This document shows positions 12,981-62,528 of a stretch of 64,000 nucleotides of DNA, in pieces. Position 1 is the first letter of the stretch; each line of letters starts with the position of its first letter. The stretch lies in the IMG/VR virus record IMGVR_UViG_3300045988_136451; one strand, 5' to 3'. Both the position numbers and the translations under genes were made by a program. The notes below the pieces were generated by a model that was given only the letters and a program-made list of their open reading frames with translations, was not told the DNA's origin and did not search any database. Source of the DNA: a virus.

Positions 12981-14864
12981 TTACGCGTCGCGGGAAACGG
13001 AGAACACGAACAGCTCGCTCGCAAGCTCGGTGAGCATGCTTTCCGCGAGAACGTCTATCCCCATGTACACGTGCCTGTCGCGGACGAGGACGGGTGCGTT
13101 CACGACCACATTGACAATGTTTTCAGCGCTCTGCACCTGATCGTAGCCCGTCGCCCTCCCCTTTCCCATGACGGTGAGCAGCCCGGTTGCCCCAAGCCCT
13201 ATGTAGAACGAGCGGTCGTAGTCCGAAACCAAGCCGCCGTCGAGCGTGACCGAGTAGATGTACTCGCGGATGTTCGCTGCGCTCTCGCCGAACAGGCCGA
13301 CGAACGGGTACGGTCGCATCTCCACGGTGTCGTCCACGTAGTATCCGCACCGACCGACGAGGCAGACGTACTTCCCGCCGCTCTCGATTATTTTATCGAC
13401 AACCGCAATCGCGTCGGCCTCCATGTTCGACACCATGAACAGGCATGTGGCGGCGTTCCGGCTGTACTTGTCCTCATGCTTCAGATCGTCATCGAAGAGA
13501 ACCCTCATGCGGTTGCTCGTCTTGTCGATCATGAGCGATGCCATGGAGTACCACGCCTCCATGTACGACACGTTGGCCTCGGTCTGCCAGTTCGCCGCCT
13601 GAAGCGAGCGCATGGACAGCGCCATGCCGTTGTAATCGGAGGCGTTGCGCTCCGATATGCGGTACTTGTCCATCGCGGCCCACAGCTCGATCACCTTCTC
13701 GTCCGATAGAAGGCGGTAGTCGGAGTAGTCGCCCACGACGACCTGCGAGGCGTTGTACTTCGCGAGCACGGAGAACATTCCGTCGGGCTGCGTTATGTCG
13801 GGCACGTCGAGCACGAATACCGGCTTGCACGCCTCCCCGATGCGGCAGCACACGGCGGTCAACGCCTCGAAGCTGCGAAGCTCGCTCTGCTCGTCGGTGC
13901 TCTTCTGGTACTTCATGGGCATGCCCGCATAGGCCCAGCCGTACGTGCCGAAGTCGGACGCTATGCCGCTCCTCGCATACCCGGCACCGTCGGAATCGAC
14001 TAGGCAGTAGGCGTAGTCGGGAACTATTGCCGTGAGGGCCGTCTGCCCTATCTTGGACTTGATCGAGACGCACAGCGCGCGCTGCTCCTCCGCGAGGAAC
14101 GAGCGCCACAGCAGGTAGTCGTCGTCCACCCCGTTGATGACGTAGCGGTCGCTGGGCATGACGCGGTTCCGCTCGTAGAAGTTCCTGTCAGCCGTCGCGT
14201 TGCGGTCGTATCGCAGACCGGCAAGCCCGATGCCGTCGAGGCAGTACCCGTACACGTCGGTTCCGTGCATCGTGCGCAGCTCGTCGATGAGGGCGGTGAG
14301 CGCGTCCTTCGCCCCGGACGGCGAAAACATGCGCGAGTACTCGCCCGTGCTCGACCTCTGCTGGTACGGATGGAAGTCGGGGTTCGTCGTGTCGCTCCAC
14401 AACTCTGACGACACGGCGCACGTCACGGCCACGTTGCGGTGCCTGAAACGGTCGAGCAGCTGCTTCAGAACCGGGTTCTTGCCCAGCCCGTAATCGGCGG
14501 CGACCTCGCTGTCCCAGTAAACCATGCCGTCCTTTGCGACGGTCAGAAGCACCTCGTCGAAGCCTGCGGACGCTATGTCCTCGACCACGACCCGCTCCTT
14601 GCCCACGCAGTCCGCCGCGTTCAGGCGGATGGCGTACCGCATCACGTTCGTCTCGCCGTTGGTGACGCGGTTCCACAGCTTCCACTTGTTCGAGGCGATG
14701 CGCTGGATGAGCCACACTTCGTTGACCTTCGGCGGCTGGTCGAAGCCCGACAGGTCGAACGATATGGTGAGCTTGCCGGTCTGCGTCATGCATGTTATTC
14801 CGTCGCTGCCAACGTTGGTTATCATCGCGGGCAGCATCTCGTTCTTGTTCATGTTCCTCTGCAT
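12981..14864 (-). CDS. Tail/baseplate-associated protein, 627 aa, possibly glycoside-hydrolase-like (GHL10/DUF187-like TIM barrel)
   Basis: YGYCLDGIGLAGLRYD resembles the G-x-hLDyIRYP signature of glycoside-hydrolase-like family 10. Weak call. Confidence 0.3.
   Translation of the reverse strand: MQRNMNKNEMLPAMITNVGSDGITCMTQTGKLTISFDLSGFDQPPKVNEVWLIQRIASNKWKLWNRVTNGETNVMRYAIRLNAADCVGKERVVVEDIASAGFDEVLLTVAKDGMVYWDSEVAADYGLGKNPVLKQLLDRFRHRNVAVTCAVSSELWSDTTNPDFHPYQQRSSTGEYSRMFSPSGAKDALTALIDELRTMHGTDVYGYCLDGIGLAGLRYDRNATADRNFYERNRVMPSDRYVINGVDDDYLLWRSFLAEEQRALCVSIKSKIGQTALTAIVPDYAYCLVDSDGAGYARSGIASDFGTYGWAYAGMPMKYQKSTDEQSELRSFEALTAVCCRIGEACKPVFVLDVPDITQPDGMFSVLAKYNASQVVVGDYSDYRLLSDEKVIELWAAMDKYRISERNASDYNGMALSMRSLQAANWQTEANVSYMEAWYSMASLMIDKTSNRMRVLFDDDLKHEDKYSRNAATCLFMVSNMEADAIAVVDKIIESGGKYVCLVGRCGYYVDDTVEMRPYPFVGLFGESAANIREYIYSVTLDGGLVSDYDRSFYIGLGATGLLTVMGKGRATGYDQVQSAENIVNVVVNAPVLVRDRHVYMGIDVLAESMLTELASELFVFSVSRDA
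13384..13399. repeat. Copy of the AT-rich motif TCGATTATTTTATCGA (inside a coding region)
   Basis: One of six copies of TCGAT-TA(A/T)(A/T)T(A/T)A-TCGA. Encodes DKIIE here. Confidence 0.5.
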
Positions 14865-14865
14865 G

Positions 14866-16284: not shown

Positions 16285-16285
16285 C

Positions 16286-17431
16286 CTATCCTCCGAACTG
16301 GTCGTACGCCGACCGGGCATATGCGATGCGCTTCTCCATCATGGGGACGGAACCGCGCGTGTACACCCGCTCGAACGCCTCCGTTGCCCATGGCAGATCG
16401 GTGATCGCCTTGAACTGGTCGAACGTCATCTTCTCCGCTATCCACGCCTGCGCGCCGTTCGGATACGTGTAAACTCCGTTGCCGGTGAAAGCGTCGAACT
16501 GGGCGGGTGCCTCGCTGACGAAGAACAAGAGCTGCGCCTGTATGTCCGTCCATTCGGTGCCGCGCTCCGACGCGAAGGCGCACAGGTCGCTGAACCGGCC
16601 AGAACCGGCCTCCCACTGAAGCAGCCCGCGTCCGGGGCCTCCGCCTCCTTGGCACGCCGCCGGGTCTACGCCGCTCTCCTGCTGCATGTTCCCGATCACG
16701 CCAGCCGCCGCCTGCTTGCTGAAGCCTTGGCTCATGCAGAAGTTCCACACCACCTCCGCGTTGCTGTTGCCGCTGAAGTCGGCAGCGCCGCCGGACGACG
16801 AGCCTCCGCTTGCGCCGCCTATGGTCGGCCCCGACGTTTGGAGCATCGCGTAAATCTGCGCCACCATGTCCGCGCCTTGGGTGTCCGATAGCTTCGCTTG
16901 GTACATGGATGTCGCCCACTCGATCACGTCGCTCGGTATCTGGCCCACGCTGATCTTCGACGCGGGCCAGTCCGCGACCGCTTGGAGCACCTTGACCCCG
17001 CTCTTCCAATAGCCGCCGTCCTGCTCCGCATCGTCCTGTCCACGGTAGACGAGCCAGAAGCTCTCCTCCAAGCCCGCGTCCCAGTAGAGCTTCTGCAAGC
17101 GGTACAGGACATCGCGCCCCCTTATCTCAACCTCGTCGGTGTTGAGGTTGTAGTAAGGGGCCTTCGTGACGTAGCCCGCGAGGACTTGGTAGCGGTCGGC
17201 CTTGGAGAGGTATATGGCTATCTTGTCCATGGGCATGAGAAGCCCGGTGTACTTCTTCCCCTCGTTCTTCAGATGCAGGATGAAGTCGCTCGAATCGTCC
17301 GTCTTCAGGTTGACGGTGAACCGCGTGATGTCGTCCGAGAGGTCGTACGCGGTCGTCCTCCCGTCGCGCGTCAGCGACACGTTGGCCTCGACCATGGGGG
17401 TGTATGTAAGGATAGCCGTCATGGCTGACAT
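16286..17431 (-). CDS. Tail-associated lysin paralog 3: shared N-terminal module plus phage tail lysozyme-like domain
   Basis: N-terminus MSAMTAILTYTPMV is paralogous to 22452..23552 and 21364..22455. After a Gly/Ser linker comes AAGVIGNMQQESGVDP...GRGLLQWE, the G-N-x3-ESG lysozyme-like signature. Confidence 0.5.
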   Translation of the reverse strand: MSAMTAILTYTPMVEANVSLTRDGRTTAYDLSDDITRFTVNLKTDDSSDFILHLKNEGKKYTGLLMPMDKIAIYLSKADRYQVLAGYVTKAPYYNLNTDEVEIRGRDVLYRLQKLYWDAGLEESFWLVYRGQDDAEQDGGYWKSGVKVLQAVADWPASKISVGQIPSDVIEWATSMYQAKLSDTQGADMVAQIYAMLQTSGPTIGGASGGSSSGGAADFSGNSNAEVVWNFCMSQGFSKQAAAGVIGNMQQESGVDPAACQGGGGPGRGLLQWEAGSGRFSDLCAFASERGTEWTDIQAQLLFFVSEAPAQFDAFTGNGVYTYPNGAQAWIAEKMTFDQFKAITDLPWATEAFERVYTRGSVPMMEKRIAYARSAYDQFGG

Positions 17432-17472
17432 TCTACCATTCGCGGCGCTCCCCCTCCATGCAGCTCGGCACC

Positions 17473-17488
17473 TCGATTATTTTATCGA
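17473..17488. repeat. Copy of TCGATTATTTTATCGA (overlaps the stop of the C39 peptidase gene; about 45 bp upstream of the lysin-paralog-3 start)
   Basis: Identical 16-mer, read in a different frame from the other coding copies. Confidence 0.5.
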
Positions 17489-18184: not shown

Positions 18185-18217
18185 GGCCGATGATTATACC
18201 CCAGCGGGAGCCAAGCG

Positions 18218-18637: not shown

Positions 18638-18649
18638 GATGCGCCTCCT

Positions 18650-19108: not shown

Positions 19109-19129
19109 AGCGGCATCGCCCCGCACAGA

Positions 19130-19531: not shown

Positions 19532-19549
19532 GGCGCATCACGGAGGCGG

Positions 19550-20445: not shown

Positions 20446-20457
20446 CGCCCGAAGATG

Positions 20458-26984: not shown

Positions 26985-27350
26985 CTACACTCCCTGCTGC
27001 TCCATCATCCGCATAAGGCCCTCCATGGTGTCGGACGTGATGCACACGTCGTCCGCCTCCTGCGACTTGCGCCATTGGCGCATCTCAATCGACTTCTGGT
27101 AGCTGTCCGGGTGCTCGTAGGAAAGCCAGAAGTCCTTGTCCTCCCTATTATCGAGGAGTTCGCGCGCCCGTTCAAGACGCTTGGCGATGTCGAGCGCCGT
27201 GATCTGCACGACGTTCAGGTCTCCTTCGAGCATCCGCCGATGATAGGCCTGCTGGCACTGCGAGAAGGCGAGCGCGACACCTCGCGGCAGCTCGTCCTCG
27301 CTGCCAGTCAGGCCGATTATTTTTTTAGCGCGCCCGCCACCTCGGCGCAC
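26985..27350 (-). CDS. Tail assembly chaperone, frameshift extension (GT-like), made by -1 frameshifting from 27317..27720
   Basis: ORF in the -1 frame overlapping the 3' end of the upstream chaperone across an A7 slippery run (plus-strand T7 at 27320..27326). Confidence 0.5.
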   Translation of the reverse strand: MRRGGGRAKKIIGLTGSEDELPRGVALAFSQCQQAYHRRMLEGDLNVVQITALDIAKRLERARELLDNREDKDFWLSYEHPDSYQKSIEMRQWRKSQEADDVCITSDTMEGLMRMMEQQGV

Positions 27351-34545: not shown

Positions 34546-34628
34546 GGCTTTCTCCTTACTTGCGGGTTGACTTTCCCTTGGTTGCAAAGTCTACCTCAAA
34601 ACGGGAAGACGTGCGACATGCGCGGTGT

Positions 34629-34644
34629 CGATTAAATAATCGAG
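34629..34644. repeat. Copy of the perfect palindrome TCGATTAAATAATCGA (intergenic, downstream of the major capsid gene)
   Basis: 7-bp arms tcgatta/taatcga around a 2-bp centre. Confidence 0.5.
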
Positions 34645-34726
34645 GCCCTTGACAGGCCGTGCCCCCCCCCATAACGGTTCCTTCGGGCGGCCAGATCAAC
34701 ATAGTCAGGCTCCCGACACCGGCGTA

Positions 34727-37670: not shown

Positions 37671-40517
37671 CTACGCACCCAATGCCGCCTTGGAGCCGGT
37701 GCGCCTGCCGACCTCCTCGGTGACGGCGCTCTTCGCGCCCTCCAACGTGTCCTCGTCGCCCTCGGCCATCTTCTCGCCGGACGCGCCGCCGCTCGTCATG
37801 TCGATCAGCTCCCAGTGGTACTTTCCGGGCGTGGAGTAGTCGTAATCGACCTCCATCTCGTACGGGTGCTCGAACTTGGCCCACACGCCGTCCTGCTCCT
37901 CCCAGCCGTCGTCGGCGGTCTTCGCGGAGGCGGTGCGGCCCAGAGCGTCGTCGATGGCGGCCTGCGCGCTCGGGAAGTACCCTTGGCGCGGATAGCCCTT
38001 CACTCCCACGTCTTCGGTGACCCAGTACCAGTTGTAGGTTCCGTCGGCCTCGACTTCGGCGTTCACGATCTTGCCGTCGCCCGTGAAGCGCCACGGGCTT
38101 CCGAGAGCGCCGCCGCCCATGGTCTCGAACTTCGTCCAGCCGTCGGGCGCGGGCGTTGAGCGCCCGGTGTCGTGCCCGTCGCTCGCCGCCGTCTTGGCGG
38201 GGAGGCGCTGGGCGTTCTGCGCCAGCCACTCGTCCGCGAGCCTCGCGCAGTACTCCATGGCAGGCTCGATCATGCAGAAGCCGTCCTCCGGGTTGTCGTA
38301 CTTCGCCAGCAGCTGGTCGTACGGCATGCTTTCGACCTCGGCGTAGGGCAGGCCGTCGATTGAGACGGTCTTGACGCGGGCGATCTCCAAGCTCGGCTCG
38401 TACGCGCCGTCCAGCGTTCCGTCGTAATAGGCGTAGCAGCCCTTCGCGTCGTAGTAGAGGTTTCCGGGAAGGTTCGTCCAGCCAGCCCACGACACGTTGA
38501 CGGTGGAGCCATCGCTTCCGACGTACTTGTACCAGTAGTCTTCGCCCGCATGCTCCCATCCGCCCATCTGCGCGGTCTTTCCGCCGACGAGATGCAATCC
38601 TTCCGCCCTGTCGGAAAGCCAGTCGTGGGCATCGTACGTGGTGTCGAAGTACTCGACATCTTCGCCATCGGAGGCTTGCCAGCAATCGTACTGGTCGTTC
38701 CACTCTATGGCATATCCGTCATAAGTGTACTTGGTGGTGCCGTCAGGCCCCGCGCCCGTCTGCCATGAATCGAGCGACGGAAGCGATGCGGTCTTCGATG
38801 CCGTGGTGACGCGCACGGTCTTGGGAGGCGCTGCGGAAACGACCTCGTTGTACGTCATCTTCTCGAACCGCTCCGCCTGACGCAGGGCGTAGTCCATGTT
38901 CGGCATCATGCCGAACTCGTGCACCTGACCCTTGTCGGAGATGACGGTGAGCTGCGGCTTGGAGCCGATCTGCTGCTGGACGACACCGATGGTCGCCCTC
39001 TTGTCCTTCGTCTGCCCTTCGTAGAAGGCGTAGAACGGCAGCTCCTCGTCATGGTAGCTAATCTCCGGGGCGAGGCCGCCGCTGGCCGTCTTGCGCGGCG
39101 CACGCCTCGCCTCCCTCATTATCCTCTCGATCTCGCTTTTCGCATCTTCCTCATAATCGTCCTCGCCCTCTGCGAGAACGTATCCATAGGCATCCTCGAC
39201 GAACCAAACCCCGTCTTCCGACAGAACCGCGCGGGTTCCGTTGTCGCCGGTCGCCTTCCACCCGTTATATCCGTTGTCCTTCCACACGACATCAGCCGTC
39301 TTGCCGCGCGACGCGCGTTTTGCAGCGCCGACGAAAGACCGGACGGAAACGTCGATGTCCTTCCCGTCGTTGTATTCCTTCTCGAAGGAAACCGTGTATT
39401 CGTCCCAAACGGAGAAGTCGTCGAAAGGCGCTTCCCTGCCGGAGACCATCTGGGATATTTTGCGCGTCATCTCGCCGTCCAGCTCAACGTCGCTCCGCAT
39501 GTGCACGTTGATGCCGTCAAACACCTGCCCGTAATTGAACTCGGACGACACCTTCCTCGATGCCGTGCGGCGCGCGGAGCGCTTGCGCCCTGCGGAGCGG
39601 GCCGCCCTGTTCTCCGCGCTCTTCTTCTCCATGTCGTCGTCCTTTCCATCGGTCTCCCGCTCGACCTCTCCGATGCCTTCGTTGAACTCGTCCTCCTCGG
39701 ACGGGTCGAGGTCGATGAGCAGCTTGTGAAGCTCTCCGGCGTGCTCCTTCTCCTCGTCGCGTATGTCCTCCAAGCCCTTGCGCACGGGGTCGCCCTCGGG
39801 CAGGAGGTCGATGTAGGCGCTGTACATCAGGATAGCGTCGTTCTCCGCCTTCATGTTGTCGCGGATGGCGCGCTTCTTCAGCTCCTCCTCCGAAAGCTCC
39901 TCGGGGTCAACCGGCATCTGCTGCGCGGTCTTCCCCTCCTTCCATTCGCCCTCGATGCCGTCGGCTTCGAGCTTCGCCACGACGGCATCGTACAGCTCGC
40001 CGCCGAGCGCGTCTTGGACGATCTGCCAGTAGCGGTTGTCGTGCTCCTCCATGGCGGTGCCGTGGTCGTATCCGGCCAAGTCCCCCGCCACGAGCCAGTC
40101 AACGACGGCCTGAACCGTGCGGTCGTCCGGCATGGACGCGCTCTTGGGCATCCTGCCGCTCCCTGACACCTCTTCTGTGTCCCTGCCGTACTCCGGCAGC
40201 GTTTTGAACTCGACGCGCCCCACATCGGCTCCTGTTCCCTCGGAGGCGGCGTTGCGCCCCATGCACAGGGGCAGCTTCCCGCTGCCCTCGATCAATTTGC
40301 AGAACTCGCGCGCCTCGTCCTCGTCCGCGCACACCTTGAACCGCGCCGCCTCGTTCGGCTTGTCCTTCTCGAAGACACCGGCCCACACGGTGTCGCCGGT
40401 CTTGTCTATCGAGTAGTTGAACGCCTCGCCGCACGATGTCAGGACGCGGGGCATCTCCTCTTTCCATCGCAGGGCCGTCTTCGCGCCCCGCTCGATTATT
40501 TTATCGGGCTTGCCCAT
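37671..40517 (-). CDS. Giant acidic protein, 948 aa, with a ferritin/rubrerythrin-like ExxH motif; candidate virion-internal or anti-defence protein
   Basis: RBS gaaggag. Very Asp/Glu-rich. ENDAILMYSAYIDLLP...EDIRDEEKEHAGELHKLL resembles a ferritin-like diiron motif. Confidence 0.35.
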   Translation of the reverse strand: MGKPDKIIERGAKTALRWKEEMPRVLTSCGEAFNYSIDKTGDTVWAGVFEKDKPNEAARFKVCADEDEAREFCKLIEGSGKLPLCMGRNAASEGTGADVGRVEFKTLPEYGRDTEEVSGSGRMPKSASMPDDRTVQAVVDWLVAGDLAGYDHGTAMEEHDNRYWQIVQDALGGELYDAVVAKLEADGIEGEWKEGKTAQQMPVDPEELSEEELKKRAIRDNMKAENDAILMYSAYIDLLPEGDPVRKGLEDIRDEEKEHAGELHKLLIDLDPSEEDEFNEGIGEVERETDGKDDDMEKKSAENRAARSAGRKRSARRTASRKVSSEFNYGQVFDGINVHMRSDVELDGEMTRKISQMVSGREAPFDDFSVWDEYTVSFEKEYNDGKDIDVSVRSFVGAAKRASRGKTADVVWKDNGYNGWKATGDNGTRAVLSEDGVWFVEDAYGYVLAEGEDDYEEDAKSEIERIMREARRAPRKTASGGLAPEISYHDEELPFYAFYEGQTKDKRATIGVVQQQIGSKPQLTVISDKGQVHEFGMMPNMDYALRQAERFEKMTYNEVVSAAPPKTVRVTTASKTASLPSLDSWQTGAGPDGTTKYTYDGYAIEWNDQYDCWQASDGEDVEYFDTTYDAHDWLSDRAEGLHLVGGKTAQMGGWEHAGEDYWYKYVGSDGSTVNVSWAGWTNLPGNLYYDAKGCYAYYDGTLDGAYEPSLEIARVKTVSIDGLPYAEVESMPYDQLLAKYDNPEDGFCMIEPAMEYCARLADEWLAQNAQRLPAKTAASDGHDTGRSTPAPDGWTKFETMGGGALGSPWRFTGDGKIVNAEVEADGTYNWYWVTEDVGVKGYPRQGYFPSAQAAIDDALGRTASAKTADDGWEEQDGVWAKFEHPYEMEVDYDYSTPGKYHWELIDMTSGGASGEKMAEGDEDTLEGAKSAVTEEVGRRTGSKAALGA
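40492..40507. repeat. Copy of TCGATTATTTTATCGg (codons 4-8 of the giant acidic protein gene)
   Basis: Encodes DKIIE, as at 13384. Confidence 0.45.
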
Positions 40518-40575
40518 GCTCGCTCCTTCAAAAGTCCGAAGGGGAGGGGCCTCGCCCTCCCCTGAAAGCTGTCTC

Positions 40576-43123: not shown

Positions 43124-46100
43124 CTGCTTTCCTTTCCGATAACTCCGCCGCGCATCAATTCGTCAAGCGATGCGGAGTAAGAGGCGATCTTACCTCCGCT
43201 CGCAAGATCGTAGTCTATGCCCTCTGCGTACCCGGCATCGGCGAGCGCCGCGAGCACGGTGCCCTGATCGTCCGGAACGTCGAACAGGCGGGCCGCGATG
43301 CGGGCATCGTCGGTGTCCTCCGCGTACTCCTCCTCGGCATCTTCGGTCACCTCCGCGTCAGGCTCCTCCGCATCGTCCAAGTCCTTGCGCAGCTCCTTGT
43401 TCTCCTGCGCCTCCTCCGTGTCGATGTCGCCGAAGCCCTCGGCGTACTCGACGTACTCGCACACGTCGCAGTAGATGCCGTCGAAGTCGGGGCTTCCGCA
43501 TATCGGGCACACGCGGTCGGAGTTCTGCATGTCCACCTCTTCGGGGATGCGCAGCTTGTTCACCATGTTGTCGGCCAGCTTGTAGTGACCGGCGATCTCT
43601 TGGAGGGCATCGGCGTAGAACTCCTCGTCGGCATCGGCGGCCTCCTCGACGGCGCTCCACACCTCTGCGGCAAGCTCGTCGTAGCTGTCGAAGGACAGGC
43701 CGAGGCTGTCGTACTCCTCGATGAAGTCGTTGGCGAAGCCGCTTGCGTCGTCTGCGGAGCCTTCCTTGCCCTCGCCGAACGGCTCGATGCCGAACCTCCT
43801 GCACGCGGCGTTCACCTTGTCGATGACGGCCTGCCTGTCATCGGACGGTATCTCGACCTTGTTCCCGCGATAGCCCTTGCCGAGCGCGGCCTTCGCCGCA
43901 GCGGCATGGTCTTTGTCCGAGATGTCCAGCTTCCAATCGCTCGGATTGTCGGTCGGAGTGTACGCATAGTCCGACTTGCTCTTCTCCGCCGCCGTCACCC
44001 GAAGCAGCGTCCGCGCCTCGTCGTATACTTCATCGTTCATGTCGGTGTGCCTCCATTGCATCGTCCCGAACATATGGTCGGCAAGCGTCCCGTCTGCTCC
44101 GCTGCCCACGTAGCTCTCCACCACGTCGTTCACTTTCTTGTCGAAGATGCAGTCGTAGTTCTCCGTGTTCTCGAAGTCAGACCACCTCGCATAGCCGTAC
44201 AGCTCGCCGCCGTACATCTGCCTGTTGATGCCGTCGAGGTACCAGTTGCACCCGCCAACGCCGTAGCCCCAATGGTCGGAGCCGCGAACAACGCCGTCAG
44301 GGAAGTACCAGTACTCGGAGCCTGATTCGCTCGTGTAGTCGGGAGCGCCCTGCGGCCTGTCCTCCACCTCCGCGAAGTCCGCCTCGGTCTCTATGTAGAA
44401 GTTGTCGGGGCCGAACTCCCTTTCCTTCGCGGCGACCTTGGCGGTCTTCGCCTCGGCCTCCAACGCCTGCACGGTGGCCGTCGGGTCTGCCGGGTCGTAC
44501 ACCCAGCTCTCCTCGAAGAACGCTATGCCGTTGCATATCTCGAACGCGAGAACGCCGTCGAACTCGCGCCCCTTCTGCTTGATGTGGTTGCAGAACTGGG
44601 CGGGCTGCTCTGCCACGTTCCCGCACACCGAGCACGTCGTGGTCTCGCAATTATGAACGGCATACCCCTCGGCAATATAACTATGATCTTCCTCAACTTC
44701 AAAGTTATACACCATCCCCGTGTACGGAAGAACCCTTATGCGGTCTATGCGCCTCCAAGTGCCTTGTTCGTCAACATAGCACATCATCATTTTCTTCTGT
44801 TCTTCGGAGCGATCTCCATAAGAGACGTAACGTGTGTGTTTGGCAATATCGGATATTCTCTCGGAAGACCTAGCGATTGGTTTGGACATCTTGATGCCAA
44901 GTTGAGTGCATATTGAAAATATCTGATATGCAAGGTCTTTTGAAACGGTGGAATATGCGACCCTGCGATCATCAATGTAATGTCCGTCTCCATTAAGATA
45001 CGCTTCGACAAGATCGCCAAGACACTCATCATCCCAGCGCATTGCTTCGTCGCTTATTCTTTTCCCATGGGAATACTTCCCACCATGCTCTAACATCATA
45101 TTTGCAAGTTCCGGTGAATTGCACCTTATCGTAGCAGCTCCACGCTTGATATACGGCCCAACCGCCTTATATCCGAGTTCAGAGCAAAGCGCCATGACTT
45201 CATCGTGATAATCAGTCTCGCTATCGCAAAACGTCCACTCGACAAACGCTGGTGCGCCAACACCAATGTTCAGCTTTTTGTCATATCCGAAGTTTCCCTC
45301 TGCGAGATAGTATCCAAGGAGCCTTGCGAACGCGCGATTCCCGCCACGCGATGTGCGAACGGGCTTCGGGTCGAGAACGTAATCTCCAACCTCCAAGTCA
45401 CTCGCAATGACCCATCCTTCAAAATCGGGCTGGTATCCATGGCCGTCAACGCCGTTCTTCGCGGCCTCGCGCACATGCGCCGCAAGGCTTCTATGGCTCT
45501 TGAACGAGCGCCCGCAAATGCAAGAATGCTCTGCATTGTCGCCATCATGAGCTATCCTGCTTTCACGTATGGTTCGCATCGCGTCGTTCTTCATTCGACG
45601 CACCCAGACGGGATGCTCGTCGGTAAGAACCATCGGACGTTTGCTTCCATAAGATCGCACCTCATACACGATTCCGGAATGCAAGCTCGCCATCGTGTCG
45701 GCAACCCTTCGCACGTTCCCAAGATGCGTTATAACCTCATCGCCGACCGCAACGTCTTCGATGTTTTTGACGGTGCCGTTTGACATAGTTATATGCGTTC
45801 CGGGAACAAAGCAGTTGAGGCCCATGGAAACGGTGTCGATGTCGCCGCTGCGGATGAGCGCGCACAGCCTCGGGAACGTAACCTCGTCCATCTCCATCAG
45901 AATCTCTATCCAACGGTCTTCCGGGTCTTCGTCGTGGTACACCGCGTCGATGATGTAGCCGCGCGCCCTGTCGAGGTTCGTGTTCGAGTGGTTCACGTAC
46001 ACCGGCTTGCCGACGAACGTGCGGTACGCGGTCTTCAGCTCCTCGTGCGGCAGCATGTCGAAGTTCAGGTTCGGAACGTCTGCGGTGCATGCGCGGACGG

Positions 46101-55125: not shown

Positions 55126-58113
55126 CTACAGGCCGCCACACCACGGCCTCCCGGCCCATCCGTCGGTGAGGCCCATCTGCCTCTCGAACTCCATGGAGCG
55201 CTCGAAGTAGAACTGCTCCTTCGCAAGGTTCTCCCTCATGCCGACCTCCGGCATGTAGCCGCCCTGCGCCGCGCCGGTGATGCGCAGCAGGGTTCCCTCT
55301 CCAAGCGCCTCGACCTGATCTGACAGGAGGTTCACGCACACCGTCGAAACGCAGTCCGCCATGTCGTTGTGACAGTTTCCGGAAATGAGAATCTTGCCGT
55401 TCCTGCGCGTGACAAGCGTTCCATTTTGAACCTCGAAGCAATACACCATGCCGTCGTATCGGCTTATATCGACCTTACTTCTCTCAACCGCCGATTCTTT
55501 GCGACCGAGAAGGCATATTTCGTGAAATTCCCCGCCCGACGGCGTTTTGCAATCATAGTATGACGTTGCGGTTCCGTTTGTCATAAATACGGCCTGCATC
55601 GCATCGGCAACGCCCTTGTCCTTTATCCCCGCTCTGATGTAAGCGTTCTTGTCCTTGCTAAAGGTGCCGTCTCCATGCAGGAAGCCATCTATGAAGCAGT
55701 CCTGCTCCTTCTTGCCCCATTCCACGAAAATCTCCGAAGGTATTGCAAGGTCACCAGCTCCATCGAAAAACCTTTCCAGCGTCCAGTCTGCAAGCCATTT
55801 GCTATACACCTTGTATTCGTATAGCACTTTCCTCTGATATCCGCTTTTCTTGCACTCTCGTTTAGACCACTCGAAGCCAGACCCATCAAGAGCCGCCTCG
55901 ATATACACGATTCCATCTTCCTTCGACTGCGAGATTATAAAAACTCCATCACGCCGAAGCGCAATCTTTCCGCCATCCGCCAACCAGAAACCGACGATCC
56001 TTGCAAAGCAGCCGAAATCAACTCCGCTCGGAAGATCGACCAAAGCACCTGCATTCCCGTTTTCACCACACCTTGGGATGAAGAACTTAGACCGATTGGC
56101 CAAGATGCCATCAATAGGGGACTTCATAAGCTCAGTCATCTTCCCGTGGTTGCACAGCCTGTACAGCATCCTATGATTCGGTGTCACCTTGAAATCGACA
56201 AGACGGTTCGAGTATCCGTACATTTCGCCATGGTACTCGTATGCGATTTTCCTGATCGGCTGCTGCCACTCGATCTTGCCGTCCTTTGAATACGTTGCGA
56301 CGCGTCTGCCCATGACGGCATCTTTGAACAGAACCCATCCATCCTCCGTCAAAACCTCCGTTGCGGCATCGTGACATACGTCGCCCGTCTCCGGGTGGTC
56401 TACCTTCTTGCCGTTCTTCAGGATGAGGAACTTCAGCTCCTTCTCCAACATGCACACCTCGCCGAGACCCAGTATGTCGTCTATCACGAACGGGGCGTGA
56501 ACCCATCCTTGGTAGAGGGCCTGCTTGAACCGCTCCCAGCGCTTCATGTTCTTCTTCTCGGTGGCGGTGTCCTCCTCGATGACGACCGAGCCGTTGAGGA
56601 ACGTCCCCATCGTCCTCTCCAAGTTCAGCGTGTCGATGAGCGACGCGCTCTGGTACTGGTCGAACGTGCAGCGGACGATGTTGAACAGCTTCAGGTACTC
56701 GATGATCTGCTTCTGCACGACCGTGTAGTTGATGCGCCGAACGCCGTGCTCGTCGGGAGGGAAGTCCTTCGCTTGGAAAATCTTCTGCACGTCGATGAAG
56801 GCGTGGAAGAAGCCGTCCTCGCACAGCTCCTTGTGGCCGATTGCTATGCAGAAGTTGTCGTTCACGCGCCCAGCGTCGCAGTGCATGACGTACTGGCGGT
56901 CGATGCGCCCGTGCCTAGCCGGGACGTTCGCGTTGCCCTGAAGGTCTGGGTACGCGTTGAACATCTTCTCAACCATGTCGGGGTTCAGGTACGCGTCCTG
57001 CGACTTGGCGAACTGCGCGCGGTACTCAACCCTGAACTTCTCCGGGTCGCGCTCCTCCTCCATGGCGAACGATTCGTCCTGCTCCGGAGGAAGCAGCAGG
57101 GGCTTGCCTATCGCCGGTACGTACTGGCCGTCCGTGAACAGCTCCCACGACGGCGCTTGCATGCAGAACATGTCGGGGTGCTTCGAGCTGCCGTCCTCGT
57201 CGCGCTCGAAGGCGTTCTTGAACAGCTTGTAGAACATGCCCACCTCCGACACGGGGGTGGACGGGACGACTATCATGGCCTCCTTGCCGACCTGACGCAG
57301 CGACGGCGTTAGGGCCTTCCAGATCGCCTCCGACGATGCCTTCAGGCCGTCGTCGCGACCGTAGGCGAACTCGTCGTACGCCTGTATGATCGAGGCGTTG
57401 CCTCGCGCGGAATCGGGGTTGGCGGCCTTCGGCTCGACGAGAAGCGATGCCCTGCGCCTTATGTTCTTCCTGATGCCCGATTCGATCTGCCGCATCTCCT
57501 CGCGCTCGTTGAACACCTTGTCCGCAGCCGTTTCCAGCTTTATCGCGGTCTCGGACAGCGAGCTAGTCCACGGGTCGAACCACGAGCACTCTATGATGGT
57601 GTTCAGGATGTCGAGGTACAGCGCGGACTTCGCTTGGCTGAACGTCGTCGCCATGACATCGACGTGCATCTCCTTGCCGTCCGGCAGGTGGAGGACGCGC
57701 TGGGGGTTGCCGAGCGAGAGCATCTGGGCCAGCTTGTAGTCGATGAGGTGCGACACGGTGAAGCCCTTTGAGCCGCGTCGCCCGAGGCAGAAGATGTTCT
57801 CGCGGAAGTGCTTGTATCCGCGCTTCTTCAGCCACTCGATGCGGTCGAAGATGTCGAGCGGAATCTTCACCGGGCCGCCGTTGCGCGTGCTCTCGCGCCA
57901 CCCTTCTATCACTTGGAAGTCGTACCGGTTCATCTGGTCGATCTCCAAGAAGATGATCTTCATGAGCGTCTTCTGGCGGGGGTACAGCGGTGTCCATTGC
58001 AGGGACGGCGTGTACATGTCGTAGAAGTCGCAGATCGGCGGGAGCCGTTCGAGCGCCAGCTTCGGGGCCGCCAGCGACGAGAAGACATCTATGCCGTGCT
58101 TGATCTCGCCCAT
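55126..58113 (-). CDS. Terminase large subunit interrupted by a LAGLIDADG intein
   Basis: Position after a small coupled gene and before portal. Extein of about 660 aa. Intein CHDAATEVLTEDG... with FWLADGG and FIDGFLHGDGT motifs, ending ...ILISGN followed by Cys. Confidence 0.55.
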   Translation of the reverse strand: MGEIKHGIDVFSSLAAPKLALERLPPICDFYDMYTPSLQWTPLYPRQKTLMKIIFLEIDQMNRYDFQVIEGWRESTRNGGPVKIPLDIFDRIEWLKKRGYKHFRENIFCLGRRGSKGFTVSHLIDYKLAQMLSLGNPQRVLHLPDGKEMHVDVMATTFSQAKSALYLDILNTIIECSWFDPWTSSLSETAIKLETAADKVFNEREEMRQIESGIRKNIRRRASLLVEPKAANPDSARGNASIIQAYDEFAYGRDDGLKASSEAIWKALTPSLRQVGKEAMIVVPSTPVSEVGMFYKLFKNAFERDEDGSSKHPDMFCMQAPSWELFTDGQYVPAIGKPLLLPPEQDESFAMEEERDPEKFRVEYRAQFAKSQDAYLNPDMVEKMFNAYPDLQGNANVPARHGRIDRQYVMHCDAGRVNDNFCIAIGHKELCEDGFFHAFIDVQKIFQAKDFPPDEHGVRRINYTVVQKQIIEYLKLFNIVRCTFDQYQSASLIDTLNLERTMGTFLNGSVVIEEDTATEKKNMKRWERFKQALYQGWVHAPFVIDDILGLGEVCMLEKELKFLILKNGKKVDHPETGDVCHDAATEVLTEDGWVLFKDAVMGRRVATYSKDGKIEWQQPIRKIAYEYHGEMYGYSNRLVDFKVTPNHRMLYRLCNHGKMTELMKSPIDGILANRSKFFIPRCGENGNAGALVDLPSGVDFGCFARIVGFWLADGGKIALRRDGVFIISQSKEDGIVYIEAALDGSGFEWSKRECKKSGYQRKVLYEYKVYSKWLADWTLERFFDGAGDLAIPSEIFVEWGKKEQDCFIDGFLHGDGTFSKDKNAYIRAGIKDKGVADAMQAVFMTNGTATSYYDCKTPSGGEFHEICLLGRKESAVERSKVDISRYDGMVYCFEVQNGTLVTRRNGKILISGNCHNDMADCVSTVCVNLLSDQVEALGEGTLLRITGAAQGGYMPEVGMRENLAKEQFYFERSMEFERQMGLTDGWAGRPWCGGL
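55375..56376 (-). mobile_element. Intein (about 334 aa) within the large terminase gene
   Basis: Boundaries GDV|C ... SGN|C, hand-counted. Unusual GN rather than HN terminus. Confidence 0.45.
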
Positions 58114-58114
58114 G

Positions 58115-58519: not shown

Positions 58520-58568
58520 CATTCTGTCCTCCAAAAGTGAAACGGCGCTCCCGCGCCAAGTCGATTCC

Positions 58569-58793: not shown

Positions 58794-58861
58794 ACCGCTC
58801 CTTCAAGAAAGCCCCGGCACGGATGCCGGGGCATAGTATCGCACAGAACAGCGCGCCGCCG

Positions 58862-59953: not shown

Positions 59954-59957
59954 CTCC

Positions 59958-61022: not shown

Positions 61023-61660
61023 ACCGCCGGTGTCGTAGTCGAGAAGTCGTACACGGAGGCGAGCGATGGTTCTATCAGCGTCTCGGCACCGTCGTCTTCG
61101 AGGGTCGCCGCGACCGCTCCGGGCTTCGCCTGCTCCTGCTTCCGGTTCTGCTGCGCCGCGCGCTTCAGCGGCTTAGGCCCGGAAGATGCCCTCTGCGGGG
61201 CGCTGACGGCCTTCTGGGGGGCGCTGGGCTGCTTTTCGGGTTCGGGTGCCGCCTCGTCCGCTTCGGGGGCGCAGAACAGCTTTGAGGGCTTCACGGCTAT
61301 CTCCGCCGCCGCCTCGCTCCTTCCCCTGCTCTCCGCAGCCACCTCCTCGATGCCGCCGGGAATCTTCACCTCGCGCTTGCGGGAGGGCTTCTGCCCCTCC
61401 GCCGGTGCGGCCTTCTTGGCCGGTGCGGCCTTCTCGGAGTTCGCTGCGCCGCCCTGCGAGAGGAAGCCCTTCACGACCGCCTCGAACTGCTCGCGGTGCC
61501 TCGCGCACACGTCGTCGAGGAGCATGTACCTCTCGCCGTCGATAAGAACCTCGATTGCGGCGGGCTTGTCCTCGCCGTACTCTTCCAGAATCGCCTCGGT
61601 CTCCTCCGGGGATATGACATCCCCGCAACCGGGCACGTCGCACACCAACGCTATGCCCAT
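61019..61660 (-). CDS. Lsr2-like (?) nucleoid-associated protein with Lys/Pro/Ala/Glu-rich linker, 213 aa
   Basis: N-terminal IEVLIDGERYMLLDDVCARHREQFEAVVKG resembles the Lsr2 dimerisation segment (VEFGLDGVTYEIDLS..NA..LR..L..WV). Central SRGRS. Histone-H1-like low-complexity region. Confidence 0.3.
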   Translation of the reverse strand: MGIALVCDVPGCGDVISPEETEAILEEYGEDKPAAIEVLIDGERYMLLDDVCARHREQFEAVVKGFLSQGGAANSEKAAPAKKAAPAEGQKPSRKREVKIPGGIEEVAAESRGRSEAAAEIAVKPSKLFCAPEADEAAPEPEKQPSAPQKAVSAPQRASSGPKPLKRAAQQNRKQEQAKPGAVAATLEDDGAETLIEPSLASVYDFSTTTPAV

Positions 61661-61683
61661 GAGCTTCCATCTCCTTTGAACGC

Positions 61684-61699
61684 TCGATTATTTAATCGA
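61684..61699. repeat. Copy of TCGATTATTTAATCGA (intergenic, 24 bp upstream of the Lsr2-like gene start)
   Basis: Perfect palindrome variant. Confidence 0.5.
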
Positions 61700-61706
61700 C
61701 ATTGTA

Positions 61707-62528
61707 TCACAGCCACTTGCCCTCGGTTGAGAATCTTTGCCAGTCGCCGGAGGCGAGCACGTTGCCGAGCGTCGGGCACCAGTCGCCGCGCCTGTTGTCC
61801 ATGAGCCACTTCCGGAAGTCGGGGTTGCGAAGCGCCCGCAGAACGTCCTCCCTCCAACGCCCAACGCCGTCGCCCGCAGCCTCTGCCGCCTCGGCCACGA
61901 TCTCCCGCTCGCGCTCCAAGAAGCTCTCGTTCTGGTACCGCAGCGGAACGTCCGGGTACGCCTCCCTGAAGTCCCGATGCGCAGCGTCGATTAAATAATC
62001 GAGTTCTGCGGTGCCCTGCCCTTGGGTGTCTGCGGAGATTTTCCGCGCGCGCGCGCGTTCATTCGTTCCTCCCTCATGTCCATCTCTGTCAGGAGTGGTT
62101 TGGTTGTTACAGGTGGGGCTTTGGTTGATGTTACTTTGGTTGATATTACTTTGTGTCGTGTTATCCGACGACGGGTTATCCGATGACGGGTTTTCCGTCA
62201 TCGGGGCTGAACTGGTGTTTTCCGTGTACGGCCTGATAAAGTATCTTACGCCGCTGAACGTGCCGTCATTCTCGCTTTTAACGGTTTCTCGTCGGACGTA
62301 TCCAAGCTCTTCGAGTTCCTTGACGGCGCTGCGCACGGCATCGCGCCCGTCGGCCATGCACTTCGATATGCCGTTGATCGAATAGTCCCACTCTTCGGAG
62401 CAGGAGAGCATGAAGGCGAGAACCCCCATCGCTTTGGCGCTCAACCTCTTGTCTCGTAGAAAGTCGATCTTGACGACCATGAAGCCGTCTGCGCCGGTGT
62501 CCACCATGCATTGCTTGTCTGCTCTCAT
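61707..62528 (-). CDS. Replication initiator / replisome-organiser-like winged-helix protein (about 274 aa from MRADKQC), with internal repeat region
   Basis: N-terminal MGVLAFMLS...GISKCMADGRDAVRSAVKELEELGYVRRE fits a winged-HTH initiator N-domain. Central linker NPSSDNPSSD...NINQSNINQS is encoded by direct DNA repeats. Confidence 0.45.
   Translation of the reverse strand: MRADKQCMVDTGADGFMVVKIDFLRDKRLSAKAMGVLAFMLSCSEEWDYSINGISKCMADGRDAVRSAVKELEELGYVRRETVKSENDGTFSGVRYFIRPYTENTSSAPMTENPSSDNPSSDNTTQSNINQSNINQSPTCNNQTTPDRDGHEGGTNERARARKISADTQGQGTAELDYLIDAAHRDFREAYPDVPLRYQNESFLEREREIVAEAAEAAGDGVGRWREDVLRALRNPDFRKWLMDNRRGDWCPTLGNVLASGDWQRFSTEGKWL
61986..62001. repeat. Copy of TCGATTAAATAATCGA (inside the 3' part of the initiator-like gene; encodes ELDYLIDA)
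   Basis: Perfect palindrome variant. Confidence 0.5.
62044..62210. repeat. Iteron-like repeat cluster inside the initiator-like gene (candidate origin of replication)
   Basis: (CG)7 at 62044..62058. Two 15-bp direct repeats tttggttgat(g/a)ttac. Two 15-bp repeats ccga(c/t)gacgggtt. Inverted repeat ccgatgacgg-N5-ccgtcatcgg. Locally AT-richer. Confidence 0.45.

Follow-up and report, generated by a model that had tools for sequence, protein, structure and literature searches.

In the stoperators of temperate mycobacteriophages, asymmetric sites of 13-14 bp, strictly oriented with transcription, are read by a monomer of a known repressor. Once bound, the Cluster A protein stops transcription at the initiation stage as well as during elongation, and one stoperator overlaps an early promoter. 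P2 Ogr, acting at TGT-N12-ACA centred at -55, and phi29 p4 are dual-function switch regulators with dyad sites near -55 or over early promoters. For the LexA/SOS box the consensus is GAAC-N4-GTTC in Firmicutes and TCGAAC-N4-GTTCGA in Actinobacteria. The Cluster A stoperators are described as sites of L5 gp71-type immunity repressors (PMC9283540), and start-associated sequences (SAS) are mentioned for Cluster K mycobacteriophages (PMC4351075). The Cluster O mycobacteriophages carry 17-bp palindromic repeats, 5'-TGTTCGGNNNCCGAACA (TGTTCGG-N3-CCGAACA), about 40% of them intergenic, about 30% at gene 5' ends and about 30% inside genes (PMC4351075). The Cluster O repeats are among the closest analogues of the motif considered here, sharing with it invariant inverted-repeat arms, a short and mostly A/T centre, and dispersal over an actinobacteriophage genome.

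The motif was studied in a window of 64 kb, the whole stretch of viral DNA that was analysed, from a close relative of Eggerthella phage LE2-3 (112 kb myovirus, 63% GC), a phage of a gut bacterium. The genes of the window are on the minus strand, and the gene strand has an A>T skew. A motif search with YCGAT-W6-ATCGA finds six copies in the window, given here with their 16-bp coordinates:

13384..13399, minus strand: copy 1, TCGATAAAATAATCGA on the gene strand, inside a 627-aa baseplate-region gene (LE23_106 homolog, 12981-14864, minus strand), encoding VDKIIE
17473..17488, minus strand: copy 2, overlapping the stop codon (TAA) of the LE23_103 homolog
34628..34643, minus strand: copy 3, intergenic, 126 nt past the stop of the major capsid gene (34770)
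40492..40507, minus strand: copy 4, CCGATAAAATAATCGA, codons 4-9 of the 948-aa LE23_74 homolog (ATG at 40517)
61684..61699, minus strand: copy 5, TCGATTAAATAATCGA, intergenic, starting one base after an extended -10
61987..62002, minus strand: copy 6, TCGATTATTTAATCGA, in the region of a replication-initiator-like gene that codes for the C-terminal domain, encoding LDYLID

All six palindromes claimed in the initial annotation are present in the sequence; four of its coordinates hold, and two (34629 and 61986) were one base off, the copies lying at 34628 and 61987. The copies are near-identical and AT-rich, sited at the starts of gene blocks and in some cases within genes, and the motif is the most AT-rich recurring element of a 63% GC genome (a value of 68% had been given; GC is about 62-63%, ranging from 0.55 to 0.66 per 2 kb). 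At full length it is an 18-bp palindrome, C-TCGATWA-WW-TWATCGA-G. Dinucleotide-preserving shuffles of the window yield 0.00-0.02 matches and never attain the observed count. With a weight matrix built from the 15 copies of LE2-3, the six sites score 33-34 bits, and because the next-best position scores below 10 bits, the window has no degenerate intermediates. Chance frequency and absence from relatives had been named as grounds for dismissing the motif, but its count is far above that of the shuffles and its copies are kept in relatives, which marks it as a real element. Multi-copy contigs in IMG/VR are relatives of this phage only, and no repeated palindrome was found in a clade whose capsid protein is 49% identical. 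The motif is a lineage-restricted element.

The whole genome of LE2-3 holds 15 copies, eight fully intergenic, two overlapping gene ends (75103, 111195), one at a gene 5' end and four inside genes, one of these in the doubtful ORF LE23_140. Non-coding DNA, which makes up 5.65% of the genome, contains 9 of the 15 (binomial P = 2e-8). This spread over intergenic DNA, gene 5' ends and gene interiors is similar to that of the Cluster O repeats, and in neither is a clear-cut orientation relative to transcription apparent. The arms are of 7 bp in both, with a 2-bp centre in the motif and a 3-bp centre in Cluster O, whereas the sequences differ and the copy numbers are 15 per 112 kb versus 34 per about 70 kb (PMC4351075). 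The motif is not the Cluster O repeat itself, since its sequence is another one and its phage is a myovirus of Coriobacteriia rather than a mycobacteriophage; only the kind of element is common to the two. Arms that change together in 40% GC relatives, and a promoter geometry that can be read at several sites, are particular to the motif. It belongs to a kind of element known from other phages of high-GC bacteria. Six of the 15 LE2-3 copies stop 14-27 nt short of a start codon with a Shine-Dalgarno sequence directly next (e.g. TAATCGAgaaggagcaaagacATG) and in this recall the SAS, which are likewise conserved repeats just upstream of the ribosome-binding sites of a gene subset. However, the SAS lack symmetry, take in the ribosome-binding site itself and are closely tied to start codons, and more than half of the motif copies are not so tied.

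Site positions are kept in relatives of 64% to 40% GC whose proteins are 25-87% identical, namely at the LE23_54/55 junction, ahead of LE23_50 and of PolIII-alpha, downstream of the capsid gene and within LE23_106. In the low-GC relatives the motif is TCAAT-W6-ATTGA, both arms being altered jointly from TCGAT/ATCGA. Palindromy reaches positions 7/10 and mostly 6/11, leaving as free W the two central bases only; as they are 2-4 nt apart, these inner palindromic positions cannot pair in a hairpin. Symmetry is imperfect at the ends, position 1 being C in 8/29 high-GC sites and position 16 almost always A, then G. The low-GC relatives also have tandem arrays of 2-3 copies, 24-46 bp apart, an arrangement typical of operator clusters, interleaved with a second palindrome, GAAC-N4-GTTC. 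The explanation we favor, and hold to have about an even chance of being correct, is that the motif would be an 18-bp dsDNA operator for a dimeric, sequence-specific and lineage-specific regulator, probably phage-encoded. An operator for a phage regulator was also among the proposals of the initial annotation; we infer that a protein binds the motif, and likewise which one it is and whether regulation is positive or negative. The motif differs from both LexA consensuses and is not a LexA/SOS box; GAAC-N4-GTTC boxes stand beside it in low-GC relatives only and have 0 occurrences in the window. As with stoperators, many near-identical sites are dispersed through intergenic and coding DNA, and one copy lies over an early promoter. 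Nevertheless, the motif is not a Cluster A stoperator: stoperators are asymmetric and have a known repressor, whereas the motif is a palindrome with symmetry to the inner positions, and no HTH repressor and no integrase were found in LE2-3 or the window. Integrase occurs in low-GC relatives only.

The copies that touch coding sequence are four in the window, not three as first counted, and they are informative about the level at which selection acts. Their codon usage is rare (P(GAT AAA ATA ATC given DKII) = 0.002; TTA is 0.7% of Leu codons), and residues at homologous sites follow the motif variant (LDYLIE versus LDKIIE, VDKIIE versus VNKIIE). It is strongly supported that selection acts on the motif DNA, overriding coding. 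Rare codons, residues that shift with the motif variant and the concentration of copies in non-coding DNA bear out the earlier proposal of a DNA-level function, although the frame-independent conservation cited for it was overstated. Copy 2 does lie in another frame, shifted by one base (TCG ATA AAA TAA), and gives the upstream gene its stop codon, but the three internal copies (13384, 40492, 61987) share the frame xTC GAT WWW WTA ATC GAx, translated as VDKIIE, PDKIIE and LDYLID, which is the only frame open for all motif variants. L074 and L077 keep a site at the position of copy 1, as does L075, a relative of 41% GC in which the sequence is TCAATAAAATAATTGA and the residues are VNKIIE. Copy 4 is a 5-aa insertion (KPDKI) missing from the low-GC homolog; it is conserved in L065 and is not at the homologous start in L007. 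Copy 6 is kept in L070, L072, L073 and LE2-3 with different encoded residues (DYLIE versus DKIIE), and low-GC L008 has only a degenerate relic at its position.

In the structural region, the copies are accompanied by the following elements:

17430..17438, minus strand: extended -10-like TGGTAGAAT, assigned by eye, with no call by the two-hexamer scan
34588..34593, minus strand: -10-like TAGACT, assigned by eye, starting 35 nt after copy 3
34644..34658, minus strand: small GC hairpin GGCCTGTCAAGGGCC, directly upstream of copy 3
40541..40562, minus strand: GC-rich hairpin GGGGAGGGcgagGCCCCTCCCC, upstream of the LE23_74 homolog start, seen in the sequence

Copy 2 ends 50 nt (rather than the roughly 45 bp first reported) before the ATG (17422) of the LE23_104 homolog, the lysin paralog of the initial annotation, which indeed has a phage tail lysozyme domain (PF18013). 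The TAGAAT within TGGTAGAAT starts 38 nt after copy 2 and 7 nt before the ATG, which places the centre of the copy near -58; L077 keeps both the site and TGGTAGAAT. No Shine-Dalgarno sequence is present before the tail-lysozyme gene, so its transcript is likely leaderless. Between the end of copy 3 and the ATG (34545) of the LE23_79 homolog lie 82 nt, and the offset of TAGACT puts the centre of the copy near -54. Its position is occupied in L065/L066 (hybrid TCGATTATTTAATTGA), L007 (TCAAT type) and L076 (three copies); TAGACT is conserved in L065, and TATTAT / TATCAT stand at the equivalent offset in L007 and L076. Both TGGTAGAAT and TAGACT keep a fixed offset from the motif while the sequence between has diverged. 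Hairpin GGCCTGTCAAGGGCC and the T-rich stretch of copy 3 are together terminator-like. Copy 4 lies directly downstream of a terminator-like hairpin and a ribosome-binding site; the terminator scan made no call at GGGGAGGGcgagGCCCCTCCCC, whose T-run is weak.

At the LE23_54/55 junction, the relevant features are:

61701..61711, minus strand: extended -10 TGTGATACAAT, conserved, which overlaps the upstream gene's stop codon
61019..61660, minus strand: LE23_55 homolog, with a CDxPxC...C..H N-terminus, a basic PAK-rich linker and a C-terminal IEPSxAxxxDFSxT
61707..62528, minus strand: replication-initiator-like gene, with an HTH_36 domain

Copy 5 is separated by 23 nt from the ATG (61660) of the LE23_55 homolog, which the initial annotation called Lsr2-like, and is predicted to span the transcription start, from about -5 to +11. 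Four diverged genomes of 52-64% GC share the block TGTGATACAAT-N-motif-RBS without variation, and the low-GC relatives have two copies at the junction. Two geometries are seen, each at 3/15 LE2-3 sites, with the -10 elements near the motif assigned by eye; examples from the window and LE2-3 are:

window 61684; LE2-3 97650, 109207: 'on the start' sites, the motif covering the transcription start, with a strong -10 immediately upstream
window 17473, window 34628, LE2-3 27443: '-55' sites, at -35-less promoters, the motif centre at about -54 to -58

Gene-strand TGNTANNNT elements number 11 in the 64 kb, two of them within 40 nt of a motif copy. The motif is non-random and is associated with promoters, with its positions and symmetry conserved.

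A late-promoter element, also among the initial proposals, is a rival to be taken seriously, though unlikely in our judgment: the motif would itself form the core of a middle or late promoter specific to the phage, at which a phage factor redirects the host polymerase, as at T4 late promoters, with the start just after ...TAATCGAG. The placement of six LE2-3 copies immediately before Shine-Dalgarno sequences is consistent with such a core, as is the equally close spacing of motif and RBS ahead of the tail chaperone gene in low-GC relatives. Some copies come after a terminator-like hairpin where no other promoter can be seen (as for PolIII-alpha in LE2-3 and L079); LE2-3 sites 13430, 100846 and 111607 lie between a hairpin and a ribosome-binding site, again with no visible promoter. 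The right half plus G is under tighter constraint than the left half. Furthermore, the structural region needs other promoters, because the sigma-A-like early class (TCTTAAyTT repeats, TTTACT-17-TGTAGAAT) is almost absent there. The asymmetric variant has its A-run on the gene strand at 9/10 independent high-GC site positions. However, the A>T skew of the gene strand can account for this bias, and in low-GC relatives the variant occurs in both orientations relative to genes, roughly 10 to 6. Symmetric conservation and joint change of the arms are unexpected for a one-directional promoter, and tandem triplets 30-46 bp apart would be odd. Conserved promoter elements are found elsewhere, the extended -10 just upstream at 61684 and the -10-like elements 34-37 nt downstream at 17473 and 34628. 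A Pfam search of 104 LE2-3 proteins detected no sigma-like factor, RNA polymerase or classic HTH repressor. The motif is not a sigma-70/sigma-A promoter (-35/-10, 16-18 nt spacer) either, as the two-hexamer scan called no gene-strand promoter at the copies and the TATTTA variants have no TANNNT hexamer; the only call at the copies, 34613-34640, is on the opposite strand.

We consider it improbable that the motif acts in RNA. On this view, 5' leaders and intercistronic stretches would contain a small hairpin with a 5-6 bp stem and an A/U loop, to which a phage RNA-binding protein would bind or at which an RNase would cut, tuning translation, mRNA stability or termination. A hairpin is predicted at 6/6 copies, two coding copies tip longer helices (z = -4.05 at 13384, z = -3.3 at 61987), and the copy upstream of LE23_50 caps a long hairpin that is conserved, with a T-run after it, in LE2-3, L070, L072 and L073. 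Many copies lie just upstream of ribosome-binding sites, and the single hybrid site (TCGAT...ATTGA, L065) would retain a G-U pair on the gene strand. By contrast, the hairpin of the motif alone is weak (about -4 kcal/mol; z -0.7 to -1.7 at 4/6 sites), and the extended flanking helices are not conserved, window and LE2-3 differing at 61987. The inner palindromic positions are conserved without being able to pair, C at position 1 facing A at position 16 disrupts the outer pair in those 8/29 sites, both loop orientations are found, and the predicted start at 61684 lies within the left arm. Rfam 15 gave 0 matches over the window at the gathering score. An intrinsic (rho-independent) terminator is rejected, given the motif's own AT-rich stem of 5-6 bp, its weak folds and a separate GC hairpin only at 34644-34658.

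Copies 6 and 5, 303 bp apart, lie inside and just after the replication-initiator-like gene, as they do in every high-GC relative, and origin iterons within the initiator's own gene are known for lambda O and SPP1 G38P. Nonetheless, we regard it as very improbable that the copies are binding sites of this protein, be it as origin iterons or for another DNA transaction (recombination, packaging). LE23_53 and LE23_54 do match PHROG 'replication initiation' families (E = 1e-17 and 3e-14), the window homolog (which probably starts at M41 of the listed ORF) has the HTH_36 domain, and a module swap between window and LE2-3 ends about 110 bp from copy 6. Yet there are just two copies, 291-309 bp apart, and they form no cluster; the surrounding DNA, at about 0.60 GC, lacks an AT-rich unwinding region; thirteen further copies are found at gene starts throughout the genome; the internal copy is missing in low-GC relatives; and the genes for helicase, loader and primase lie 65 kb away. 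In addition, the N-terminal DNA-binding domain of the initiator is of different types in window and LE2-3 (HTH_36 or wHTH) with the motif identical, so that the LE23_54 homolog, the one clear DNA-binding protein nearby, is unlikely to be the motif reader. Lambda-type origin iterons, with at least three repeats and an AT-rich unwinding region, are rejected on the number of copies, the local GC and the domain swap. A packaging or partition site had also been proposed; nothing was found in its favour.

The product of the gene downstream of copy 5 had been considered an Lsr2-like, AT-preferring nucleoid protein, which would coat AT-rich patches. The exceptional AT-richness of the motif in a 63% GC genome, the basic Pro/Ala/Lys-rich linker of this lineage-restricted protein, and the constant presence of the motif over its gene's promoter would fit such a role. 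We hold it to be highly improbable: an AT-patch binder has no need of invariant CG-containing arms or 33-bit information, and the motif persists at 40% GC, where AT-richness is not distinctive. Moreover, the label has no support in Pfam, NCBIfam, PHROG, PDB sequences or BLASTP; the protein has no family match in the first four, with no Lsr2 domain in Pfam/NCBIfam, and BLASTP found no similarity to an M. tuberculosis Lsr2 query sequence.

If the motif is an operator, the copies would flag transcription-unit starts genome-wide in the two geometries. A protein bound over the transcription start (61684-type) would shut off the promoter, bound near -55 of the -35-less structural-gene promoters it could recruit RNA polymerase, and the internal copies 13384, 40492 and 61987 may be auxiliary or roadblock sites. 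The arrangement resembles that of P2 Ogr and phi29 p4 in having a dyad centred about -55 of -35-less late promoters, with -10s assigned by eye here, and the same class of site over early promoters. Unlike the sites of those regulators, many motif copies fit neither position, and there is no sequence or family match to Ogr/Delta or p4. The LE23_55 homolog, with 8 matches at E<=0.001 and 5 at E<=1e-10 among 1.84 billion representatives, is a candidate for a lineage-restricted reader or target of the motif. A fuller version, quite unlikely as a whole, is that this Cys/His, basic-tail family is the reader; that one protein silences sigma-A-type early promoters from start sites and activates -35-less structural promoters from about -55; that the operator has co-drifted from G:C to A:T in both arms between 63% and 40% GC hosts; and that host LexA acts alongside at composite operators in the integrase-bearing low-GC relatives. 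Both the N-terminal CDxPxC...C..H and the C-terminal IEPSxAxxxDFSxT are conserved in the LE23_55 family, and its Cys/His N-terminus loosely recalls small zinc-finger activators.

The 18-bp AT-rich palindrome, with the 16-bp core YCGAT-W6-ATCGA (also written YCGATWAWWTAATCGA), is present in the window in six copies, starting at 13384, 17473, 34628, 40492, 61684 and 61987. The initial annotation had listed the same six, four of them at the exact base and two (as 34629 and 61986) one base off, and the comparison with shuffled sequence that it proposed comes out in its favor: dinucleotide shuffles give essentially zero matches. With a weight matrix the six sites score 33-34 bits and the next-best position in the window less than 10 bits; copies are all-or-none. 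Copies 34628 (after the capsid gene) and 61684 (before the homolog of LE23_55, a gene of Eggerthella phage LE2-3) lie between genes, copy 17473 runs over a stop codon, and the coding copies 13384, 40492 and 61987 share one common reading frame. The whole LE2-3 genome has 15 copies of YCGATWWWWTAATCGA, nine of them in non-coding DNA, which makes up 5.65% of the genome (binomial P = 2e-8). When 185,579 species genomes were scanned for TCGATTAWWTAATCGA, the matches listed were single random ones in unrelated genomes, with none from Eggerthella. In IMG/VR, several copies are carried only by relatives of this phage.

The window is 97-99.7% identical to LE2-3 (MW679026, 111,961 bp, host E. lenta DSM 2243), relative to which it is reversed and from which a few indels separate it. 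It spans approximately the terminase-to-baseplate portion of the genome, with almost all genes on the minus strand and, following the annotation of the LE2-3 record, a structural region of the myovirus type. GC content is 0.55-0.66 per 2 kb in the window and 0.63 in LE2-3 overall, so the 68% attributed to this DNA earlier is too high. A literature search found LE2-3 mentioned in no paper; PhiKL11, the E. lenta phage for which RNA-seq of infection exists, has a 44-kb genome and is unrelated to LE2-3.

Relatives' loci of 40-64% GC (numbered with the prefix L) were collected with homologs of the capsid, LE23_50, tail-lysozyme and PolIII-alpha genes, and gene order is kept among them. High- and mid-GC relatives (L070, at 52% GC, L072, L073, L074 and L077) have TCGAT-W6-ATCGA at the same places. 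The form TCAAT-W6-ATTGA is found in low-GC relatives, namely IMG/VR contig 3300045988_115635, ERZ16021092 NODE_246, ERZ28563967 scaffold_170 and L067 (47% GC). Low-GC counts far exceed chance, with six copies against none expected in each of two 21-kb loci. Together with the shuffles and the weight-matrix gap, these counts rule out a chance origin. The TCGAT type occurs at one low-GC site, adjoining a TCAAT copy, and a hybrid, TCGAT...ATTGA, occurs in one relative of 59% GC. Positions common to both sides of the GC divide are the junction of LE23_55 with the initiator-like gene (an HTH_36 replication-initiator-like gene, 61707-62528, minus strand), upstream of LE23_50, downstream of the capsid gene, inside LE23_106, and upstream of PolIII-alpha; the remaining positions are clade-specific. 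Conservation in related phages, another check proposed at the outset, is thus found from 40% to 64% GC. The lineage amounts to a natural experiment, in which the same sites are kept across this range while both arms change together. In the distant L068 clade, whose capsid protein is 49% identical, neither the motif nor any other repeated palindrome is found in 21 kb.

The relatives differ in other respects as well. Those of 40% GC encode a tyrosine integrase (L071, 757-1629; L021, 3-308), a gene absent from LE2-3 and the window, and in them GAAC-N4-GTTC palindromes resembling LexA or Cheo boxes directly adjoin motif copies, which suggests a temperate or SOS-linked lifestyle for the low-GC clade. 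The 59% GC relative (L065, 11088-12407; L066, 4597-5571) has an extra AT-rich gene between the terminator of the capsid gene and the motif copy; there the motif remains with the downstream gene and not with the capsid gene.

In coding sequence the motif is kept at the expense of the protein. All three occurrences of the peptide DKII are encoded by GAT AAA ATA ATC (P = 0.002 under the phage's own codon usage), whereas other DKI and KII peptides use GAC AAG ATC codons. TTA accounts for 0.7% of Leu codons; the genome has 17 TTA codons, two of which fall inside motif copies. At the homologous site inside the initiator-like gene, relatives have LDYLIE or LDKIIE, tracking the motif variant carried. 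At the site inside the LE23_106 homolog, a 41% GC relative has VNKIIE in place of VDKIIE, exactly the change that its arm variant requires. At the N-terminus of LE23_74 the motif coincides with a 5-residue insertion, which the low-GC homolog lacks. Selection, as read from these sequences, acts on DNA and not on protein; keeping the motif in coding sequence costs rare codons and altered residues. The general idea of the initial annotation, a regulatory site at the DNA level, holds, but its specific link to Lsr2 does not.

The consensus of 29 high-GC and 29 low-GC sites is C-T-C-R-A-T-W-A-W-W-T-W-A-T-Y-G-A-G. Position 7 is invariably A and position 10 invariably T, and both belong to the symmetry, as positions 6 and 11 mostly do; only the central two bases are free A/T. 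The right end (A16, G17) is under tighter constraint than the left, which has T or C at position 1 and C at -1 in about 60-75% of sites. Without exception in LE2-3, the A-run of the asymmetric variant is on the gene strand; in low-GC relatives the variant is found in both orientations, and the gene strand is A- and G-rich generally. The site is therefore treated as functionally symmetric. The anatomy also bears on whether the motif acts as an RNA hairpin. A hairpin is predicted at the motif, though a weak one, and extended hairpins around the coding copies are significant at two sites. However, the extended forms differ between the window and LE2-3, the C1/A16 mismatch is frequent, and the conserved inner positions 7/10 and 6/11 are too close together to pair. 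Rfam has no match in the window either, and we consider a function in RNA improbable.

The very high information content, the symmetry through the center, tandem arrays in relatives, auxiliary copies (a pair 303 bp apart at the LE23_55 promoter) and the placement of copies argue instead for an operator-type site for a dimeric DNA-binding protein, a reading to which we give about an even chance. Placement was judged against the following -10-like elements.

Putative -10 elements at motif copies in the window
61701-61706, minus strand: TACAAT, within the extended -10 TGTGATACAAT; this overlaps the upstream gene's stop codon, and copy 61684 starts one base past it
17430-17435, minus strand: TAGAAT of a TGGTAGAAT element, starting 38 nt after copy 17473
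34588-34593, minus strand: TAGACT, starting 35 nt after copy 34628

Copy 61684 ends 23 nt ahead of the ATG of the LE23_55 homolog, and the block of -10, motif and ribosome-binding site is invariant across four genomes, while the upstream coding sequence varies. The same junction in low-GC relatives has TATAAT, 11-16 nt, and two motif copies with a GAAC-N4-GTTC box. At 17473 the ATG lies 7 nt past TAGAAT and there is no Shine-Dalgarno sequence, so the downstream transcript is likely leaderless; L077 keeps this -10 and its offset despite a different spacer sequence. A small GC hairpin precedes copy 34628, and the element that follows it lies 1 nt farther downstream in L065 (TAGACT) and 1-2 nt farther in L007 and L076 (TATTAT/TATCAT). 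In LE2-3, copies 97650 and 109207 lie just past -10-like elements of an AT-rich early promoter class, and copy 27443, which sits at the tip of a conserved hairpin resembling a terminator, precedes TAAAAT by 35 nt. The sequence TGNTANNNT is rare (22 in the window, 11 of them on the gene strand), and two of the 11 are within 40 nt of a motif copy (P ~0.007, a rough estimate). These -10 elements were assigned by eye, and a two-hexamer promoter scan of the window calls none of them. A candidate -35-like box, GGTGCR-N18-TANNNT, found after the motif in several relatives (at their LE23_50 and LE23_79 sites), was set aside, having no match in the window.

The motif would thus lie either on transcription starts or near -55. 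A protein bound at these two placements may repress some promoters and activate others and so act as a timing switch. The motif might instead be the core of a promoter read by a phage-modified polymerase, with transcripts starting a few nt after ...TAATCGAG at most copies. Such a core would account for copies directly ahead of ribosome-binding sites and behind terminator-like hairpins, as at PolIII-alpha in both clades, but it leaves the symmetry, the mixed orientation and the tandem arrays unexplained, and we regard it as unlikely, if less so than an RNA hairpin.

As to the protein that would bind an operator of this kind, Pfam searches of 104 LE2-3 proteins gave no sigma factor, polymerase or classical repressor, and there was no transcription regulator among the first 25 of the 70 PHROG families listed for the LE2-3 proteome. 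The initiator-like protein, inside whose gene copy 61987 lies, matches PHROG replication initiation families and HTH_36, with nothing significant among PDB sequences. It is an unlikely reader, since its N-terminal domain is of two types in the window and LE2-3, with identical motifs in both. The motif could also consist of origin iterons for this protein, or of sites of another DNA transaction. Iterons fit the two copies at the initiator-like gene only and fail on clustering, AT-richness and the N-terminal domain swap; we find this very unlikely. For the operator, the most attractive candidate reader, by position alone, is the LE23_55 family. Its members have a basic linker, and Cys/His residues as well as a C-terminal peptide are conserved among them; there are eight matches at E<=0.001, five of which reach E<=1e-10, among 1.84 billion cluster representatives. 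The family matches no known family, including when a 7-homolog profile is compared with PDB sequences, and a single-sequence AlphaFold model has too low a confidence to be of use (pLDDT 44). The protein had been called Lsr2-like; it is not detectably Lsr2. LE23_55 and LE23_79 resemble each other over 24 aa (E = 0.003), too weakly for the similarity to be used.

Of the elements described so far, the 17-bp dyad repeat in Cluster O mycobacteriophages comes closest; it has more than 30 invariant copies, is of unknown function, and is similarly split among intergenic, 5'-proximal and internal positions (PMC4351075). Cluster A stoperators are functionally alike in being dispersed repressor sites, which also halt elongation, but they are asymmetric, have a fixed orientation and belong with a known immunity repressor (PMC9283540). 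In defining features the motif departs from Cluster O repeats, Cluster A stoperators and SAS elements, and likewise from LexA boxes, lambda-type iterons, terminators and sigma-A promoters. In sum, the element is genuine, under strong selection and conserved; it is of a known kind, but no example had been described from this phage group or host. Should it prove a conventional operator set and no more, this is useful annotation and not new biology. A single 18-mer marks about 15 control points and permits direct pull-down of the regulator, giving a concrete handle on the timing of gene expression in this 112-kb phage group, and it could help explain the Cluster O palindromic repeats. For a host that has few genetic tools, it also offers well-defined promoter/operator parts; virulent E. 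lenta phages are candidate editing tools for this drug-metabolizing, disease-linked gut bacterium.

A second repeat family, TCTTAAyTTyT, often occurs as tandem copies with TTTACT-17-TGTAGAAT after them, and resembles a class of early promoters of the sigma-A type that have AT-rich repeats upstream.

TCTTAAyTTyT repeats
1529-1539, minus strand: window
40854-40876, plus strand: window
8.1, 11.3, 12.7, 22.8, 90.5, 92.6, 98.6, 108.0 and 109.1 kb: LE2-3 record

In the window, one copy sits ahead of an SNF2 gene, after a terminator, and two tandem copies are antisense within an ArdA-like gene, at a distance of some 350 bp from motif copy 40492. Just upstream of copy 34628, past the stop of the capsid gene (window ~34660-34680, minus strand), a G9 tract precedes CACGG; this combination recurs just downstream of the motif copy before PolIII-alpha (LE2-3 record ~100870). 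The slippery sequence for frameshifting in the tail assembly chaperone, TAAAAAAATAATCGG, looks like the motif's right half (window ~27317-27350; L066 11801; L068 19287), probably by coincidence, since it is kept even in the distant clade without the motif.

Further stretches of the window merit separate mention. The terminase large-subunit ORF (55126-58113, minus strand) has 995 aa against 661 aa in LE2-3, owing to an insertion of about 1 kb at 55371-56378, of lower GC and with a weak LAGLIDADG match (residues 807-855); it is likely an intein or homing-endonuclease insertion. GC falls to 0.547 at 44001-46000, within a 1037-aa gene annotated "tRNA synthetase" in LE2-3, and this stretch may be foreign or mobile DNA. 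At 62114-62534 the N-terminal DNA-binding domain of the initiator-like protein is replaced relative to LE2-3 (the window has HTH_36 where LE2-3 has a winged-helix domain of another type) and the C-terminal domain is common to both, which by sequence comparison is a module swap between phages otherwise ~99% identical. Just upstream of the probable true start of this gene (MRADKQ..., from 62528), an inverted repeat at 62572-62638 (minus-strand context) has 27-nt arms that are 89% complementary and separated by 13 nt, and a T-run comes after it. TGATAGGATACAAT lies within the repeat, which in part is similar to the -10/half-motif block ahead of LE23_55; it could serve as an operator of the gene itself, as a terminator or as an origin element.
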